DNA from: Centroscyllium fabricii
Lineage: Eukaryota
Assembly: GCA_051313645.2 (NCBI GenBank)
Contig: JBNRSN020000026.1
Span: forward strand, 65,038,001 to 65,102,000
Direction: 5' to 3'
DNA length: 64,000 nucleotides
A model generated the notes under the pieces. It worked only from the letters and a program-made list of their open reading frames with translations, was not told where the DNA came from and made no database searches. The translations under genes were made by a program, and so were the position numbers. Below are positions 11,501 to 54,197 of the stretch, in pieces. The stretch's first letter is position 1, and every line of letters starts with the position of its first letter.

Positions 11501-11821
11501 GGATAAGCATAGTTTTGTAGCGGTACGCCGGCTGGCGAATCCGCCTCGGGAGTACTGCGGGGCATAGCCCCGCCCACCGGGTGACTCGATGACGTCACCA
11601 TGTCTCTCGGTGTGATGAGGTCAGCGGCGAGCGGGCAGTTTAAATGAGCCCGCTCCTCGTGGCTCAGTCTCTTTCTCATGTAGTTCATTGATTAAACTAG
11701 TGTTAACTGTCTCTCCGGCTCCTGTGTGGTCCTTGGGTCCTGTAAGCGCTACAGTTTAATCTGACAGAGTCAGCATGGTTTTACGAAAGGGAAGTCATAT
11801 TTGACAAATTTGCTCGAATTC
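8590..11821 (+). mobile_element. CR1 LINE with 5' UTR, ORF1 and 5' half of ORF2; decayed and 3'-truncated
   Basis: ORF1 Cys-rich/coiled-coil part (8789..9235) and SGNH esterase pieces (VHVGSND, 9291..9743); ORF2 AP endonuclease (LYLNA, ITETW, YRPP, MGDFN, SDH; 9782..10978) and RT start (KSPGPDG, NYRPVSLTS; 11013..). Confidence 0.92.
11516..11753. mobile_element. Solo LTR inserted in CR1 ORF2
   Basis: TGTAGCG...CGCTACA inverted termini; perfect 4-bp TSD gttt; CR1 sequence resumes after it. Confidence 0.9.
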
Positions 11822-14800
11822 GCGGGGGGTGGGGAGGGAGGCCGATATCGTGGGGGGAGTCCGATATCGCGGTGGGGAATCAGATATCACGGGGGGTGGG
11901 GAGGGTTTCAGATACCGTGGGGGGAGTCGGATATCGCGGGGGGGGGAGGGTAGTCGGATATCGCGGGGGGGGGGTAGTCGGATATCGCGGGGGGGGGTAG
12001 TCGGATATTGCGGGGGGAGTCGGATATCGCGGGGGGGAGTCGGATATCGCGAGGGGGAGTCGGATATCGCGAGGGGGAGTCGGATATCGCGGGGGGGAGT
12101 CGGATATCGCGGGGGGGAGTCGGATATCGCGGGGGGGAGTCGGATATCGCGGGGGGGAGTCGGATATCGCGGGGGGGAGTCGGATATCGCGGGGGGGAGT
12201 CGGATATCGCGGGGGGGAGTCGGATATCGCGGGGGGGAGTCGGATATCGCGGGGGGGAGTCGGATATCGCGGGGGGGAGTCGGATATCGCGCGGGGGGTG
12301 TCGGATATCGCGCGGGGGGTGGGAGGAGTCGGATATCGCGCGGGGGGTGGGAGGAGTCGGATATCGCGCGGGGGGTGGGAGGAGTCGGATATCGCGCGGG
12401 GGGTGGGAGGAGTCGGATATCGCGGGGGGGTGGGAGGAGTCGGATATCGCGGGGGGGTGGGAGGAGTCGGATATCGCGGGGGGGTGGGAGGAGTCGGATA
12501 TCGCGGGGGGGTGGGAGGAGTCGGATATCGCGGGGGGGTGGGAGGAGTCGGATATCGCGGGGGGGTGGGAGGAGTCGGATATCGCGGGGGGGTGGGAGGA
12601 GTCGGATATCGCGGGGGGGTGGGAGGAGTCGGATATCGCGGGGGGGTGGGGGGAGTCGGATATCGCGGGGGGGTGGGGGGAGTCGGATATCGCGGGGGGT
12701 GGGGGGAGTCGGATATCGCGGGGGGGTGGGGGGAGTCGGATATCGCGCGGGGGGTGGGGGGAGTCGGATATCGCGGGGGGGTGGGAGGAGTCGGATATCG
12801 CGGGGGGGTGGGGGGAGTCGGATATCGCGGGGGGTGGGGGGAGTCGGATATCGCGGGGGGGTGGGGGGAGTCGGATATCGCGCGGGGGGTGGGGGGAGTC
12901 GGATATCGCGCGGGGGGTGGGGGGAGTCGGATATCGCGCGGGGGGTGGGAGGAGTCGGATATCGCCGGGGCGGTGGGAGGAGTCGGATATCGCGGGGGGG
13001 TGGGAGGAGTCGGATATCGCGGGGGGGTGGGAGGAGTCGGATATCGCGGGGGGGTGGGAGGAGTCGGATATCGCGGGGGGGTGGGAGGAGTCGGATATCG
13101 CGGGGGGGTGGGAGGAGTCGGATATCGCGGGGGGGTGGGAGGAGTCGGATATCGCGGGGGGGTGGGAGGAGTCGGATATCGCGGGGGGGTGGGAGGAGTC
13201 GGATATCGCGGGGGGGTGGGAGGAGTCGGATATCGCGGGGGGGTGGGAGGAGTCGGATATCGCGGGGGGGTGGGAGGAGTCGGATATCGCGGGGGGGTGG
13301 GAGGAGTCGGATATCGCGGGGGGGTGGGGGGAGTCGGATATCGCGGGGGGGTGGGGGGAGTCGGATATCGCGGGGGGGTGGGGGGAGTCGGATATCGCGG
13401 GGGAGTGGGGGGAGTCGGATATCGCGGGGGGGTGGGGGGAGTCGGATATCGCGGGGGGTGGGGGGAGTCGGATATCGCGGGGGGAGTCGGATATCGCGGG
13501 GGGAGTCGGATATCGCGGGGGGAGTCGGATATCGCGGGGGGAGTCGGATATCGCGGGGGGAGTCGGATATCGCGGGGGGAGTCGGATATCGCGGGGGGAG
13601 TCGGATATCGCGGGGGGAGTCGGATATCGCGGGGGGAGTCGGATATCGCGGGGGGAGTCTGATATCGCGGGGGGAGTCTGATATCGCGGGGGGAGTCGGA
13701 TATCGCGGGGGGAGTCGGATATCGCGGGGGGTGGGGGGAGTCGGATATCGCGGGGGGTGGGGGGAGTCGGATATCGCGGGGGGTGGGGGGAGTCGGATAT
13801 CGCGGGGGGTGGGGGGAGTCGGATATCGCGGGGGGTGGGGGGAGTCGGATATCGCGGGGGGTGGGGGGAGTCGGATATCGCGGAGGGGTGAGGGGAGTCG
13901 GATATCGCGGGGGGTGGGGGGAGTCGGATATCGCGGAGGGGTGGGGGGAGTCGGATATCGCGGAGGGGTGGGGGGAGTCGGATATCGCGGGGCGGGGGGG
14001 GAGTCGGATATCGCGGGGGGTGGTGGGAGTCGGATATCGCGGGGGGTGGTGGGAGTCGGATATCGCGAGGGGTGGGGGGATCGGATATCGCGAGGGGTGG
14101 GGGGATCGGATATCGCGGGGGGTGGGGGGAGTCGGATATCGCGGAGGGGTGACGGAAATCGGATATCGCGGGGGGTGGGGGGAGTCGGATATCGCGGAGG
14201 GGTGAGGGAAATCGGATATCGCGGGAGGTGGGGTGAGTCGGATATCGCGGAGGGGTGACGGAAGTCGGATATCGCGGAGGGGTGGGGGGAGTCGGATATC
14301 GCGGGGGGTGGGGGGAGTCGGATATCGCGGGGGGTGGGGGGAGTCGGATATCGCGGGGGGTGGGGGGAGTCTGATATCGCGGTGGGGGGGAGTCGGATAT
14401 CGCGGTGGGGGGGAGTCGGATATCGCGGTGGGGGGGGAGTCGGATATCGCGGTGGGGGAGTCGGATATCGTGGGGGGAGTCGGATATCGTGGGGGGAGTC
14501 GGATATCGTGGGGGGAGTCGGATATCGTGTGTGGAGTCGGATATCGCGGAGGGGTGAGGGAAATCGGATATCGCGGGGGGTGGGGGGAGTCGGATATGGC
14601 GGGGGGTGGGGGGAGTCGGATATGGCGGGGGGTGGGGGGAGTCGGATATCGCGGGGGGTGGGGGGAGTCGGATATCGCGAGGGGTGGGGGGGAGTCGGAT
14701 ATCGCGGGGGGTGGGGGGAGTCGGATATCGCGGAGTGGTGAGGGAAATCGGATATCGCGGGGGGTGGGGGAGTCGGATATCGCGGAGGGGTGACGGAAAT

Positions 14801-15157
14801 CGGATATCGCGGGGGGTTGGGGGAGTCGGATATCGCGAGGGGTGGGGGGAGTCTGATATCGTGGGGGGAGTCTGATATCGTGGGGGGAGTCTGATATCGT
14901 GGGGGGAGTCGGATATCGCAGGTGGGAGTCCGATATCGTGGGGGGAGTCGGATATCGCGGGGGGGTGGGGGAGTCGGATATCGCGGAGGGGTGAGGGAAA
15001 TCGGATATCGCGGGGGGTGGGGGGGGAGTCAGATATCGAGGGGAGGTGGGGGAGTCGGATATCGCAGGGGGGTGGAGGGAGTCTGATATCGCGGGGGGTC
15101 GGGGGAGTCGAATATCGCGGGGGTGGGAGGAGTCGGATATCGCGGGGGGTGGGGGAG
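11822..15157. repeat. G-rich, CpG-rich satellite of about 3.3 kb
   Basis: Over 100 copies of core GAGTCGGATATCGCG separated by G-rich linkers; unit about 19-30 bp. Confidence 0.97.
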
Positions 15158-16762
15158 ATTGGCCTCCAACAACCACAACCATCTTCCTTTGTGCTGGGCA
15201 TGACTCCAGCCAGTGGAGAGTTTTCCCCCCCTGATTCCCGTTGACTTCAATTTTACTCTTGCTCCTTGATGCCGCACTGGGTCAAAGACTGCCTTGATGT
15301 CGAGGGCAGTCACTCTCGCCTCACCTCTGGAATTCAGCTCCTTTGTCTGTGCTTGCACCAAGGCTGAAATGTGGTCTGGAGCCGAGTGGTCCTGGCAGAA
15401 CCCAAACTGAGCATCAGTGAGCGGATTATTGGTGAGTAAGTACCGCTTGATAGCACTGTCGACAACACCTTCCAGCAGTTTGCTGATGATTGAGAGCAGA
15501 CTGATGGGGTGCAAATTGGCCGGATTGGATTTGTCCTGATTTTTGTGGCCATAACATAGCTGGGCAGTTTTCCACATTGCTGGGTAGATGCCAGTGTTGT
15601 CGCTGTACTGGAACAGCTTGACTAGAGGCACGACTAGTTCTGGAGCCCAAGTCTTCAGCACGATAGCCGGGATGTTGTTGGGGTCCATAGCCTTTGCTGT
15701 ATCCAGTGTGCTGAGCCTTTTCTTGATATCACGCAGAGTGAATCGAATTGGCTGAAGACTGGCTCTGTGATGACGGGGGCCTCAGGAGGAGGCCGAGATG
15801 GATCATCCAATCGGCACTTCTGGCTGAAGATGGTTGCACATGCTTCAGCCTTGTCTTTTGCACTTGTGTGCTGGGCTCCCTCATCATTGAGGATGGGGAT
15901 ATTCACTGAGCCGCCTCCTCCTCCCGTTAGTTGTTTAATTGTCCACCACCATTCATGACTGGATGTGGCAGGACTGCTGATCCGTTGATTGTGGGATCAG
16001 TTAGCCCTGTCTGCAGCATGCTGCTTCCCCTTTTCAGCATGCATGTAGTCCTGTGTTGCAGCGTCCCCAGGTTGGCATCTCATTTTTAGGTACGCCTGGT
16101 GCTGCTCCTGGCATGCTCTTCTACACTCCTTATTGAACCAGGGCTGGTCCCCTGGCTTGGTGGTAATGGTAGAGTGAGGGATATGTCGGGCCATGAGTTA
16201 CAGATTGTGGTGGAATACAATTCTGCTGCTGCTGATGGCCCACAGTGCCTCATGATTGCCCAGTTTTGAGCTGCTAGATCTGTTCTGAATCTATCCCATT
16301 TAGCACGGTGGTGGTGCCACACAACACGATGGAGGTTGTCCTAAGTGTGAAGATGGGACTTCGACTGTGCGGTGGTCACTGCTACCAATGCTGTCATGGA
16401 CAAATGCATCTGCGACAGGTAGATTGGTGAGGACGAGGTCAAGTAGGTTCTCCCATCAGCTGTCGCAGGCCCAGACTGGCAGTTATGTCCTTCAGGACTC
16501 GGCTCGGTCAGTAGTGGTGCTACCGAGCCACTCTTGGTGATGGACATTGATGTCCCCCACCCAGAGTATATTCTGTGCCCTTGCTACTCTCAGTGCATCT
16601 TCCAAGTGGTATTCAACATGGAGGAGCACTGATTCATCAGCTGAGGGAGGGCGGTAGGTGGTAATCAGCAGGAGGTTTCCTTGCCCATGCTTGACCTGAA
16701 GCCGTGAGACTTCATGGGGTCCGGAGTCAATGTTGAGGATTCCCAGGGCCTCTCCCTCCTGA
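15158..16762 (-). mobile_element. Decayed CR1-group LINE of a second family (EN to mid-RT)
   Basis: ORF pieces YRPPSADES/VGDINVH (16492..16812), QPWFNKEC, and RT HPISLLSIISK...QFGF...ALDIKAVFD (15029..15688). Confidence 0.85.
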
Positions 16763-23759: not shown

Positions 23760-23910
23760 TTATGCCCCTACTAGCTTTAAAATCTACCCCCCCTCCTGGC
23801 TTCTCCAGTTCTGAAGAAATGTCATCGACCTGAAACGTTAACTCTGTTTCTCTCCCCACCGATGCTGCCTGGCCTGCTGAGTTTCTCCAGTGTTTTCTGT
23901 TGTTATTTAA
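23760..23910 (+). mobile_element. Penelope terminal fragment with hammerhead-like motif at 23807-23843
   Basis: AGTT CTGAAGA ... GAAACGT T AACT; homologous to 53955-54197. Confidence 0.7.
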
Positions 23911-28686: not shown

Positions 28687-28847
28687 CATGATGTGGAGAT
28701 GCCGGTGTTGGACTGGGGTGGACAAATGCAAGAAGTCACACAACACCAGGTTAAAGCTTCTCTTTCATCTGACGAAGGGGCCGAAGCTCCGAAAGCTTGT
28801 GATTTAAAATAAAACTGTTGGACTATAACCTGGTGTTGTGTGACTTC
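28687..28847. mobile_element. Penelope-derived partly fold-back mini-element
   Basis: Inverted arms GAAGTCACACAACACCAGGTTA / TAACCTGGTGTTGTGTGACTTC; 12-bp TSD CTATATAAATGC. Confidence 0.8.
28765..28802 (+). ncRNA. Minimal type I hammerhead ribozyme motif
   Basis: TCAT CTGACGA A GGGGC-CGAA-GCTCC GAAAGCT T GTGA. Confidence 0.7.
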
Positions 28848-31194
28848 CTATATAAATGCAAGTGGGAAATGGAAGATTCACAGTTTGTAGGAGTCGGTCT
28901 TCCGAATTTGCAGGATAAAGCACATTACTGACCAGAGTACAGGGAGGTGGACCCTGTACCTACCCAATGTTATCCCTTATCTAGGAATGCTCGATACTGG
29001 GACCCGGTGCTCACAGTGGAAAAGCATTCTACTCTTTGGCAAATCCTCCCACTCTCCAAAAATTGACATGTTTGAAGTATGTAAAGATTAATTGTACAAT
29101 AAATGCTATGGATGGTCCATTCCTTGCTTATTTCACTTAATGTTTTCACTGCTACAAATAAAGTGCATGGTTTTAATTTCAGAACTGAACTTTACATTTC
29201 ATACAGGTGTGGAAAATAAATGAAGGGCAAAGCTCAGTTTTCAGTGGCTGTATCAAATAACAAACATTTAAAAAAGGTCTCGCTCATTAGTGATCTCGGT
29301 GGCTTAATAATTGATCTTTGGAGGCTGGCATTTTCATGGGGTTCTGCCAAACCTGATCTAATTTAGCGCGGTAATGCAACATTACACCGTTTCTGGAAGT
29401 TGAATTGCCACCACCTTCGGCTGCTTTAAAAGCTCACTAGTGTGGATTAGCGTAAATTGCAATAGACAATTATAATAAAACACTGACCTGAAATTTGTAA
29501 TCCAAAAGAGAATGTCTAAGCTCTTCAAAAACACAGCGAACTAAAATGGTCCTGGATTATTTCTTTATCACCAAAGTAAGTTTCCAACAAAATATATTTC
29601 AGATCTGAAGAAAACCAATAAAATAAACTTTAATGTAATGTCACCAAAGCTGATGCATAATGAGAGAAATAGGAAAAAAAACGGAATCAACAGTTTTTTT
29701 AGGTGTACTCTGAACATCTGTATGTGTGCCAGGTAACACTTTCTGTACAGCATTTAATCTATTTTGGAGGTGGTATTACCAAGAGTTAGGAAATAGTGTG
29801 CAAGCTCAGCCAATGGCTGTGGCCTGGAAATTGGAACCTTCAGCACCGGCCGGTTTTGAAGAAGAAAATGGCGGCCGGCCCACTTCCAGCGAGGAACGCG
29901 GTGGCCGCCATATTGGGCAGCGCTGCCGTTGCCTGCGCTCACCGCAAGTATTTTAATGACAAGGAGCATGACGTCAGTCGCCGTGCAACGCTGCAGAGTT
30001 ATGTCCAGTCCAGTGAGACGGCTCATGGTGATTGCTGCAGAAACGCATCAGCAAATTGAATATAATAGCAAAGTACTGCGGATGCGGCCTGGCCGCTGAG
30101 TTTTTCCAGCATTTTCTGTTATTTCAGCAAATTGAATGCCTGTTCTATACATGTTAGATGCCAGTACTCAAACCGGAGCAGGTCAATGAGTTCTGGCACG
30201 TAATCTGTACCGAACATCATATGGTTACATACAGTCTGGGGAGCTTGTGCTGCATCAAAAGGTCTGATCCATTACTGTCGCTTGCAGTTGCGTCAGTAAA
30301 CTGGAAATGAAATGATAATTGGGCTTTGGAAATGTTTACTGTTACTGTTCCAAACATCCGTATTGAACAAGCATTCTGTTCCTCTGAAGTAACAGGTGTG
30401 TGCTTATTTTTCAATGAAAGGCGATCAAAGACTTTCCCCTATTTCTGAAGGAATTTGTACATCTGCATTTACTCTTACCGATACTCAGGTGTTCGGGTTA
30501 TCCAGTAAACCTTTCACATCTCCTGCTGTCTTCAGGGAAGAATGGATCACCTATGCTGACTGACATCCAGTATTGCAAACAAATCGCCCAATTCCAGTAC
30601 GCCATTGCCCTTTCAAGATGGTTATCCGAATATTTTCTAGAGAGATACACTCCTGAAAAGACTTAGGCCGGAATTTTCCAGGGGGTCAGCAGGTCGGATG
30701 GGAAATTTGATTTTTTTGACAGCGGGCCGGGACCCTGCTGTCAACCCACCGCAACGCGCCTTTCCCAATGTCGGGTCTGTCAGCACTGAGCAGACCCGAC
30801 GGGCAGCAGTGAGCGACCCAATTAAACTCATTAGAATTTAGTTGACATCATTAACAGGCTTTTTTAACTTACCTTTTCACTTTAACTGCATAGCCACAGG
30901 AATCACACTGTTCGGGGATCACGGCTGTCAACCTGAGGCGGGAGTTCAGTGGCCATTGCTCCGGCTGTCTCACCCGGGTCCTCAAAATCTGACCACGATC
31001 AGCTTCAACACCAGCAGCACCAACAACCTTCTCCGCAATCACTTGATGCTGCACAGGACACAGGGCATCAACACCTGAGCACATTGCTTCCCGGGAGTCC
31101 AGGGATGGCCTCACCATAGCCAGATTTACTTCACTTGATGCTGTCACATGATGTGCCAGGTTGACACCACCTCACATAAACACCATCAACAGGA

Positions 31195-47757: not shown

Positions 47758-47809
47758 TCTTTGATGGCTCTTACCCCTTCAGAGTTACTACCTCCCATTG
47801 TTACTTTAC

Positions 47810-48190
47810 AATTGTAAGAAGTCACACAACACCAGGTTATAGTCCAACAGTTTTATTTGAAATCCCAAGCTTTCGGAGCGCAGCTCCTTCCTCAGGTGAA
47901 GTGACGAGATTCATTTAAACACAGCATATATATATAGAGGGAGAGAACAATGTTCCAGTAAGAAAAATCCTCTTTTTTAAAAATCATTCTGTGGGTTTTT
48001 CACACAGACAGCAGACTGTAACATTTGACCCTTTGTGACTGCACCCTTTGATCTCAGGCTGACTGATATGTTAGAACACCTTTGACTGCTTTGATGTCTC
48101 TCTGCTGAGGTGTGATGTGGAACAGTTGGAGAAACCACATTGTTCTCTCTCTATTGTCCACCCCAGTCCAACACTGGCACCTCCACATCA
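47810..48190. mobile_element. Penelope-derived mini-element with hammerhead motif (47863-47899, minus strand)
   Basis: Same ends as 52848-53203; direct repeat CATTGTTACTTTAC at 47796 and 48189. Confidence 0.75.
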
Positions 48191-48722
48191 TTGTTACTTT
48201 ACGACATGGTCCACGACAATATTGAGCAGGACGGGTGCCGACAAGATGCAGCTTGATTGACTTCTCTTTTCATTTTGAACCATTTTAAATTTTTTCCTTC
48301 AATCTTCAAATGAGGAAGTCTGTTTTTTTCCTAGCTATTCCATAAACTTTCAAGAACTCCCTGACACTATCCCTCCACTCTGAATTATACACCTGCTTGA
48401 AGTCTTTGAAGCTCGCCCGCAGATCTTTTTCATACTCCCGTTGCTTTTCAGTCGTCTGGTTTCAGCGTCATCCTTATGATAAATGTTTACAGAAATGTAT
48501 CGAGCCCATATGGTGACTCACTGAATGTTACTGTTTGTAAGTGTCCAGGCCTTAACTGAAACATACAGCAAATTATGTTTTGATGATCCGATTTAGATTA
48601 TTGATGGACTGACGCTATGTGGTCCATATAGACAGATGGGTTCTTACTGCATTAAACGGTTACAACTCAGAATAGATTTCTTTATTGCTAAATCTATGTA
48701 CATTCCTGCGTATTCATATATT

Positions 48723-52783: not shown

Positions 52784-52897
52784 ATATCAAATGGGTGGAG
52801 TGGAGTCCGAGATAGTGTCTATTGAAGGGATAGCCTTGGTGAACTGATGTAAGAAGTCACACAACACCAGGTTACAGTCCAACAGCTTTATTTGAAA

Positions 52898-52934
52898 TCA
52901 CAAGCTTTCGGAGCGCTGCTCCTTCGTCAGGTGA
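52898..52934 (-). ncRNA. Minimal type I hammerhead ribozyme motif, intact consensus
   Basis: Minus strand TCAC CTGACGA A GGAGC-AGC-GCTCC GAAAGCT T GTGA: stem I TCAC/GTGA, CUGANGA and GAAA cores, palindromic AAGCTT in place of stem III. Confidence 0.78.
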
Positions 52935-53080
52935 AGTGAAGAGATGCATATAAACACAGCATATATAGTCAGAGAACACTGCCAGATGATTACAGGTAAT
53001 CTTTCCAACTGCCCTTTACCTGTAATCATCTGGCATTGTTCTCTGACTATATATGCTGTGTTTATATGCATCTCTTCACT

Positions 53081-53117
53081 TCACCTGACGAAGGAGCAGC
53101 GCTCCGAAAACTTGTGA
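53081..53117 (+). ncRNA. Hammerhead motif, mirror copy with one stem III substitution
   Basis: TCAC CTGACGA AGGAGCAGCGCTCC GAAAACT T GTGA. Confidence 0.6.
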
Positions 53118-53290
53118 TTTCAAATAAAACTGTTGGACAAAAACCTGGTGTTGTGTGACTTCTTACATTTGTCCACCCCAGTCCAACACCGGCATCGCCA
53201 CATCTTGGTGAACTGAAGCAACATTCCCCAGCTGAGAGTACAGGAAGGCAATTTGGTCACAGGTTTTTTACCCATGCTAATTGTCCACTA

Positions 53291-53954: not shown

Positions 53955-54197
53955 ATCTCCCCGCCTTCTATCCCATCGCTGACCTTCCCTTTGTTCTTTC
54001 ACCCCCTCCCCCTTTCCCCAGCCCCTACTTGCTTTAAAATCTCTCCCCTCTCCTGTTTTCTCCAGTTCTGACGAAAGGTCGTCGATCTGAAACGTTGACT
54101 CTGTTTCTCTCTCCACCGATGCTGCCTGGCCTGCTGAGTTTTTCCAGCGTTTTCTGTTGTTATTTCGGATTTCCGGCATCCGCAGCATTTTGCTATC
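53955..54197 (+). mobile_element. Penelope terminal fragment with hammerhead motif at 54064-54100
   Basis: AGTT CTGACGA A AGGTC-GTC-GATCT GAAACGT T GACT; 3' part homologous to 28005-28100. Confidence 0.75.

Follow-up and report, generated by a model that had tools for sequence, protein, structure and literature searches.

Published accounts of insertions by endonuclease-bearing Penelope-like elements describe a layout in which an inverted, 5'-truncated pLTR is accompanied by a one-sided tail of 30-40 bp and a target-site duplication (TSD) (PMC3846280; PMC8557442). Both the Pen2/Pen2a elements of Adineta vaga (PMC3846280) and the insertions described by Craig et al. (2021; PMC8557442) have head-to-head pLTRs with a short junction overlap and carry the tail on a single arm next to a TSD, an arrangement that has been read as self-priming on an antisense template (PMC3846280). 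The Poseidon_Ac (PAc) element of the green anole extends both strands of its target in vitro, from two start sites that bound its tail, and inserts without the need for hammerhead cleavage; the accessible text of that account offers no explanation of inverted arms (Frangieh et al., 2024; PMC11167929). Dual hammerhead motifs on opposite strands, about 100-700 bp apart, have also been reported (PMC4209133). A further related system, the non-LTR retrozymes, comprises non-coding, pLTR-derived units with type I hammerheads arranged on the same strand in head-to-tail repeats (bioRxiv 10.64898/2026.07.22.740005).

We examined an element at positions 52848-53203 of a 64,000-nucleotide stretch of the Centroscyllium fabricii genome (assembly GCA_051313645.2, contig JBNRSN020000026.1, positions 65,038,001 to 65,102,000), hereafter the window. 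Its layout is already in the literature (PMC3846280; PMC8557442, Fig. 2; PMC4209133): two head-to-head pLTR arms with a short overlap, a tail on one of them and a TSD. Unlike Pen2/Pen2a, it is truncated to the point that no open reading frame (ORF) remains, and TSDs of the fold-backs sampled here are mostly 11-14 bp, compared to 8-10 bp in the rotifer (PMC3846280). The two arms also carry different family alleles, a feature that the accessible text of the published accounts does not address (PMC3846280; PMC8557442). The family has in common with PAc a hammerhead inside the pLTR, but PAc belongs to a different clade and its ORF begins within the hammerhead, whereas here the ATG follows the tail (PMC11167929). 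The element resembles the retrozymes in being non-coding, pLTR-derived and equipped with type I hammerheads, yet it is a single head-to-head pair, with one hammerhead per strand in inverted orientation, rather than a tandem array.

Anatomy of the insertion and its parent element

A first, sequence-only reading of the window had described a 356-bp insertion with a 13-bp TSD and inverted arms of ~150 bp, all of which were confirmed. The TSD, CTTGGTGAACTGA, occupies positions 52835-52847 and 53204-53216 of the forward strand, although its outermost bases (first and last) are ambiguous and perhaps element-derived, which leaves a duplication of 11-13 bp. Repeat detection returned inverted arms of 162 nt with 94% identity around a 16-nt spacer; counted within the element bounds, the arms are 152 nt long with 6 mismatches. 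Measured from the 3' end of the parent, the left, tail-less arm (52848-53018, minus strand, 171 nt) covers about 210 to 39 nt and the right, sense arm (53016-53203, plus strand, 188 nt) covers 191 to about 2 nt. They meet head to head on a 3-nt TTA microhomology (53016-53018), where the arm overlap is -3. Two features had escaped the sequence-only reading: the apparent 16-nt loop is, in fact, additional parent sequence belonging to the left arm, which contains 19 nt absent from the right arm; the tail of ~37 nt (53168-53204, plus strand) is, conversely, restricted to the right arm. No ORF is present within the element, and its predicted fold is exceptionally stable (-268.5 kcal/mol, z -33.9; 0 of 100 shuffles equally stable). 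Contigs from runs X1 and X2, two samples of a single study and one of them possibly the source of the assembly, span both outer boundaries with 0 differences, and none of the contigs listed bridged the central junction. We rejected an assembly artefact on the basis of the TSD, the differences between the arms and the contig support at both boundaries.

The proposal of a Penelope-like origin was also borne out, because both arms match the pLTRs of a pLTR-ORF-pLTR copy (L054) whose repeats (532 nt, 93.8% alike) flank a reverse transcriptase domain (RVT_1, E 5.6e-10). Identity to both L054 pLTRs is 93-95% over the 188 nt of the right arm and 92-93% over the 171 nt of the left arm. Both arms are thus recognizable as pLTR sequence, from the 3' end of a Penelope-like retrotransposon that is abundant in the genome, and they are joined head to head. 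In full-length copies the tail ends at the ATG of the ORF, and a genome search recovered 508 exact tail-ATG matches. Related subfamilies retain open frames of 916-919 aa in 7 of 123 matches, and the 916-aa frames show RVT_1, a CX4CxxC linker and a GIY-YIG-like end in translation; Pfam at E 0.1 did not detect a GIY-YIG endonuclease in the parent or related ORFs. A CX2-5CxxC linker upstream of GIY-YIG characterizes Neptune/Nematis-type PLEs (PMC8557442). The linker matches in the L171 ORF and in L054, though the endonuclease went undetected by Pfam, and by the published criteria these motifs fit Neptune/Nematis, a clade assignment made from motifs. The label 'Poseidon' was dropped once the CX4CxxC linker was seen. 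We treat the open-frame copies as relatives rather than the source because their pLTRs are only about 84-92% alike to the window arm over the last 120-145 nt. In L170-L176, the 916-919-aa open frames lie between pLTR pairs that are 97-99% identical, which suggests recent activity in these related subfamilies.

Hammerhead motifs and their predicted folding

The sequence-only reading had reported a CUGACGA/GAAA motif on each strand, with a palindromic AAGCTT in place of stem III in the minus copy, and had identified the motifs as minimal type I hammerheads; each point held. The CTGACGA..GAAA cores lie at 53085-53109 (plus) and 52930-52906 (minus), within motifs spanning 53081-53117 on the plus strand and 52898-52934 on the minus strand. 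Both copies contain the CUGANGA and GAAA core, stems I and II and UH site of the published minimal descriptor (PMC4209133). In the minus copy, stem I (UCAC/GUGA) is followed by CUGACGA plus an extra A, stem II (GGAGC/GCUCC), GAAA and the palindrome AAGCUU (AAGCTT at 52902-52907), and the predicted cut falls after CUU. The plus copy carries AAACTT instead, which is not self-complementary and, as AAACUU, is a non-palindromic allele present in 8 of 127 other arms. Like the published minimal hammerheads (PMC4209133), the motifs of this element combine a short helix I, an extra base between positions 9 and 10.1, a G10.1-C11.1 pair and palindromic 15.2-16.2 positions. They differ in a helix II of 5 bp, compared to 7-8 bp in Schistosoma, and in the loss of the palindrome from the plus copy. 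Rfam returned no hammerhead match at the element, by E-value or by gathering score, and the motif call therefore rests on the published descriptor; an Rfam match to MIR399 scored under its gathering threshold, reflects the hairpin only and was rejected. Because many loci of the arm set were chosen by the hammerhead motif, we did not count conservation of the core in that set as evidence.

Fold predictions differ sharply between the isolated motifs and the complete element. As 60-mers, both form stems I and II, with a stem II probability of 0.98 or more; in the whole element, that probability drops to ~1e-18 and forcing the hammerhead fold costs 62.2 (plus) or 66.4 (minus) kcal/mol. Each strand provides only one sense hammerhead, transcribed downstream of its own complement, and both are predicted to be trapped in the full element RNA. 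For the helix that would join two RNAs in a dimer, a 7-mer duplex model gave -4.9 kcal/mol for the minus copy versus +2.9 kcal/mol for the plus copy, by which measure the AAACUU of the plus copy cannot form the dimer helix. An orientation-independent cleavage module, as had been proposed, does not survive these results: the lone sense hammerhead of each strand is predicted to be sequestered and the plus copy is without the dimer palindrome. The models do support the companion suggestion of a long hairpin, predicted for any read-through transcript.

Other repeats in the window carry related features. Another family member, at 47808-48191, has a 14-bp duplication (CATTGTTACTTTAC) and a tail on the right, and has lost the hammerhead region from its right arm. 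At 28688-28853, a small head-to-head pLTR fragment retains AAGCTT in its hammerhead and a variant stem II (GGGGC/GCTCC) with one G-U pair. A second repeat family (23811-23835 and 54068-54092) contains a different minimal hammerhead: its palindrome is AACGTT, and its stems I and II, although different in sequence, remain paired on visual inspection, which suggests that the hammerhead structure is kept between the two families. The region at 11800-15280 is a G-rich tandem repeat with a strong GC skew (0.64), in which open frames exceed 1,000 codons.

Copy number and junction diversity

Searches of the 7.2-Gb genome used exact matches, so that all counts are lower bounds. The 34-nt hammerhead core had at least 43,079 matches and the subfamily marker at least 9,836. 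By contrast, the junction of the window element was found 3 times as an exact 40-mer and 6 times as a degenerate 30-mer. There was no sister copy of the element among the five other junction matches, which were a fold-back of opposite tail polarity, a partial fold-back, two short copy-backs (L221 and L223) and a copy distinguished by its alleles and by an additional insert. The copy-backs of L221 and L223 (at about 1500-1545) are about 12-20 nt long and turn at the same TAA/TTA as the window junction; the sequence of L223 then switches to the endonuclease region. In related subfamilies, three fold-backs (L087, L091 and L168) are centred on symmetric palindromes with almost no spacer, located just upstream of the hammerhead. 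To judge from their sequence, these copy-backs and palindromic centres may be true snap-back products.

The spacing between inverted cores is flat between 137 and 167 nt (chi-square p 0.375) in the 50 of 87 loci listed, which belong to several subfamilies, and the 152-nt spacing of the window element occurs once among them. Similarly, 54 distinct fold-backs yielded 51 different polarised breakpoint pairs, and the 3 coinciding pairs are 5-10 nt per arm apart in sequence. Exactly one arm is tailed in 42 of the 54, and 24 of these 42 have duplications of 11-14 bp. When 47 distinct copies were drawn by position, an inverted piece adjoined 24 of them, which makes inversion a routine outcome of insertion. 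The sequence-only reading had envisaged a propagating, retrozyme-like unit and proposed a genome-wide search for copies with shared breakpoints. Such a search retrieved only the 3-6 junction matches, none of them a copy of this element, and inversion points are essentially unique, the outcome that the sequence-only reading had itself named as refuting; the propagating unit was not borne out. The element is almost certainly a one-off Penelope stump and, as modelled, in all likelihood does not cleave and will not transpose further. One unusual Penelope junction occurs twice, at L205 and L206, 2.2 kb apart, and is probably a local tandem duplication.

Origin of the inverted arms

The sequence evidence favours two separately primed cDNAs over a self-primed fold-back as the source of the arms. 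Copying by a single fold-back can yield only sequence that the copied strand already contains. Neither arm nests in the other in the window element or in 25 of the 42 fold-backs with a single tail (15 of 26 once query-biased loci are set aside), from which we infer two cDNAs. Allele composition is consistent with this origin. The window arms differ from each other at 6 of 151 sites, while the left arm differs from the nearest other loci at 4 of 149-170; at all six sites the alleles are recurrent ones within the family, and a comparison to 127 other arms left no allele private to either arm. Across loci, 92 of 506 non-CpG diagnostic sites (18%) are discordant between the two arms, as are 17 of 95 in a separate sample with one locus in common. 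Arm discordance at other non-CpG sites is 3.2% (180/5,547), and discordance between loci, set against the 18%, is 32%. Several of the diagnostic sites are strongly linked and so represent inherited haplotypes; because of this linkage, and because the sites were defined on a sample that included these arms, the binomial p of 4e-39 makes the case look stronger than it is. In a direct-repeat control, discordance was 0 of 30, with the control drawn from younger, different subfamilies; the same-subfamily direct pair of L054 differs at one recurrent haplotype, and no same-subfamily direct-repeat pair qualified among 50 sampled loci.

We propose that the element's enzyme would cut both strands of the target about 12 bp apart and that a separate cDNA would begin from each end of the cut, one with its start at the end of the tail and the other with a start ~37 nt inward. 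These two start points match the two reverse-transcription start sites reported in vitro for the anole element. Both cDNAs would halt after about 190-210 nt, their 3' ends would anneal via TTA/TAA, and repair would close the gaps. The hammerheads would be passengers inherited from the parent pLTR, locked within the 152-bp duplex in any read-through RNA. Overall, the best explanation is probably a one-off, head-to-head stump of two separately primed pLTR 3' ends. That two templates were primed from two ends is a component we hold with modest confidence, and we lean, if only slightly, towards the more general proposition that inverted repeats of this type are built by two-ended priming, with each strand copied from its own RNA and from a different start site.

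An unlikely alternative, which resembles the self-priming interpretation of Arkhipova et al. (2013; PMC3846280), is a stump made from one template, with the cDNA priming itself by folding on TAA/TTA, an endonuclease removing one of the tails and the arm differences arising later through mutation or gene conversion. The junction is what a snap-back across a 16-nt loop would leave, and short copy-backs exist at the same TAA/TTA site. Furthermore, arms of the same locus are closer than random pairs: their diagnostic discordance is 0.177 versus 0.281, lower than in any of 2,000 permutations, and both arms of a locus carry the same rare allele about 14-fold more often than random pairs do. A TT allele with a frequency of about 12% in other arms is present in both window arms. 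Of five long inverted arms from young elements, two are nearly the same sequence as the body they belong to, with 3 differences in 1,957 nt in L178 (compared to 17-18 to the nearest other locus) and 0 in 436 nt in L179. Later gene conversion or template switching could also yield the same mosaic. However, the loop lies on the tail-less arm, and the tailed arm cannot be its copy unless a tail was later removed; the non-nested form is the commoner (25 vs 16); and the six arm differences are all recurrent rather than private alleles. Discordance is also the same in both geometric classes (30/150 nested vs 49/245 non-nested, both 20%; Fisher p 1.0), which counts against self-priming and led us to reject an equation of nested arms with a single template and non-nested arms with two.

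The two remaining explanations concern what the element would do rather than how it was assembled. That it is a non-autonomous, retrozyme- or MITE-like fold-back unit copied whole, as first suggested, would suit its own TSD and lack of an ORF, the recurrence of the same turn point at up to six loci and the agreement of L010 and L131 in junction and polarity. We consider it very improbable, given that the junction matches include no sister copy, core spacing is flat, coinciding junctions fall on microhomologies and have arms as divergent as unrelated copies, and the head-to-tail hammerhead repeats that define retrozymes are missing. Selection at this site for a host-used source of dsRNA or small RNA, or for an RNA cleavage module, is less credible still and approaches the negligible: the predicted hairpin is very stable and small RNAs derive from Penelope copies in rotifers (PMC3846280), but the hammerheads are predicted to be trapped, an inverted piece in about half of the sampled copies makes the site nothing special, and the window's long open frames resemble repeats by eye. 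RNA runs cover shares of only 0.05-0.06 of the window, and run X12, tentatively taken as RNA, leaves the flanks of the element uncovered.

The locus itself is an ordinary Penelope stump of known layout. In a literature search on twin or both-strand priming in Penelope, with subscription papers and supplements outside its reach, the two-ended model appeared in none of the papers listed, and because supplements lay beyond that search its novelty may be provisional. The value of the element is as a data point on the insertion of Penelope-like elements, a process that the literature still calls undefined. Two-ended priming, if true, would give a common explanation for the TSD, the inverted head-to-head arms and the tail on one side. 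If the arms routinely derive from two RNAs, an inverted pLTR with a one-sided tail would need no antisense template and would follow from the reported ability of the enzyme to extend both strands from two start sites. The genome offers thousands of cases for testing a two-RNA origin of the arms, and the mismatched family alleles on the arms of these stumps would then be a genomic record of two-ended priming.
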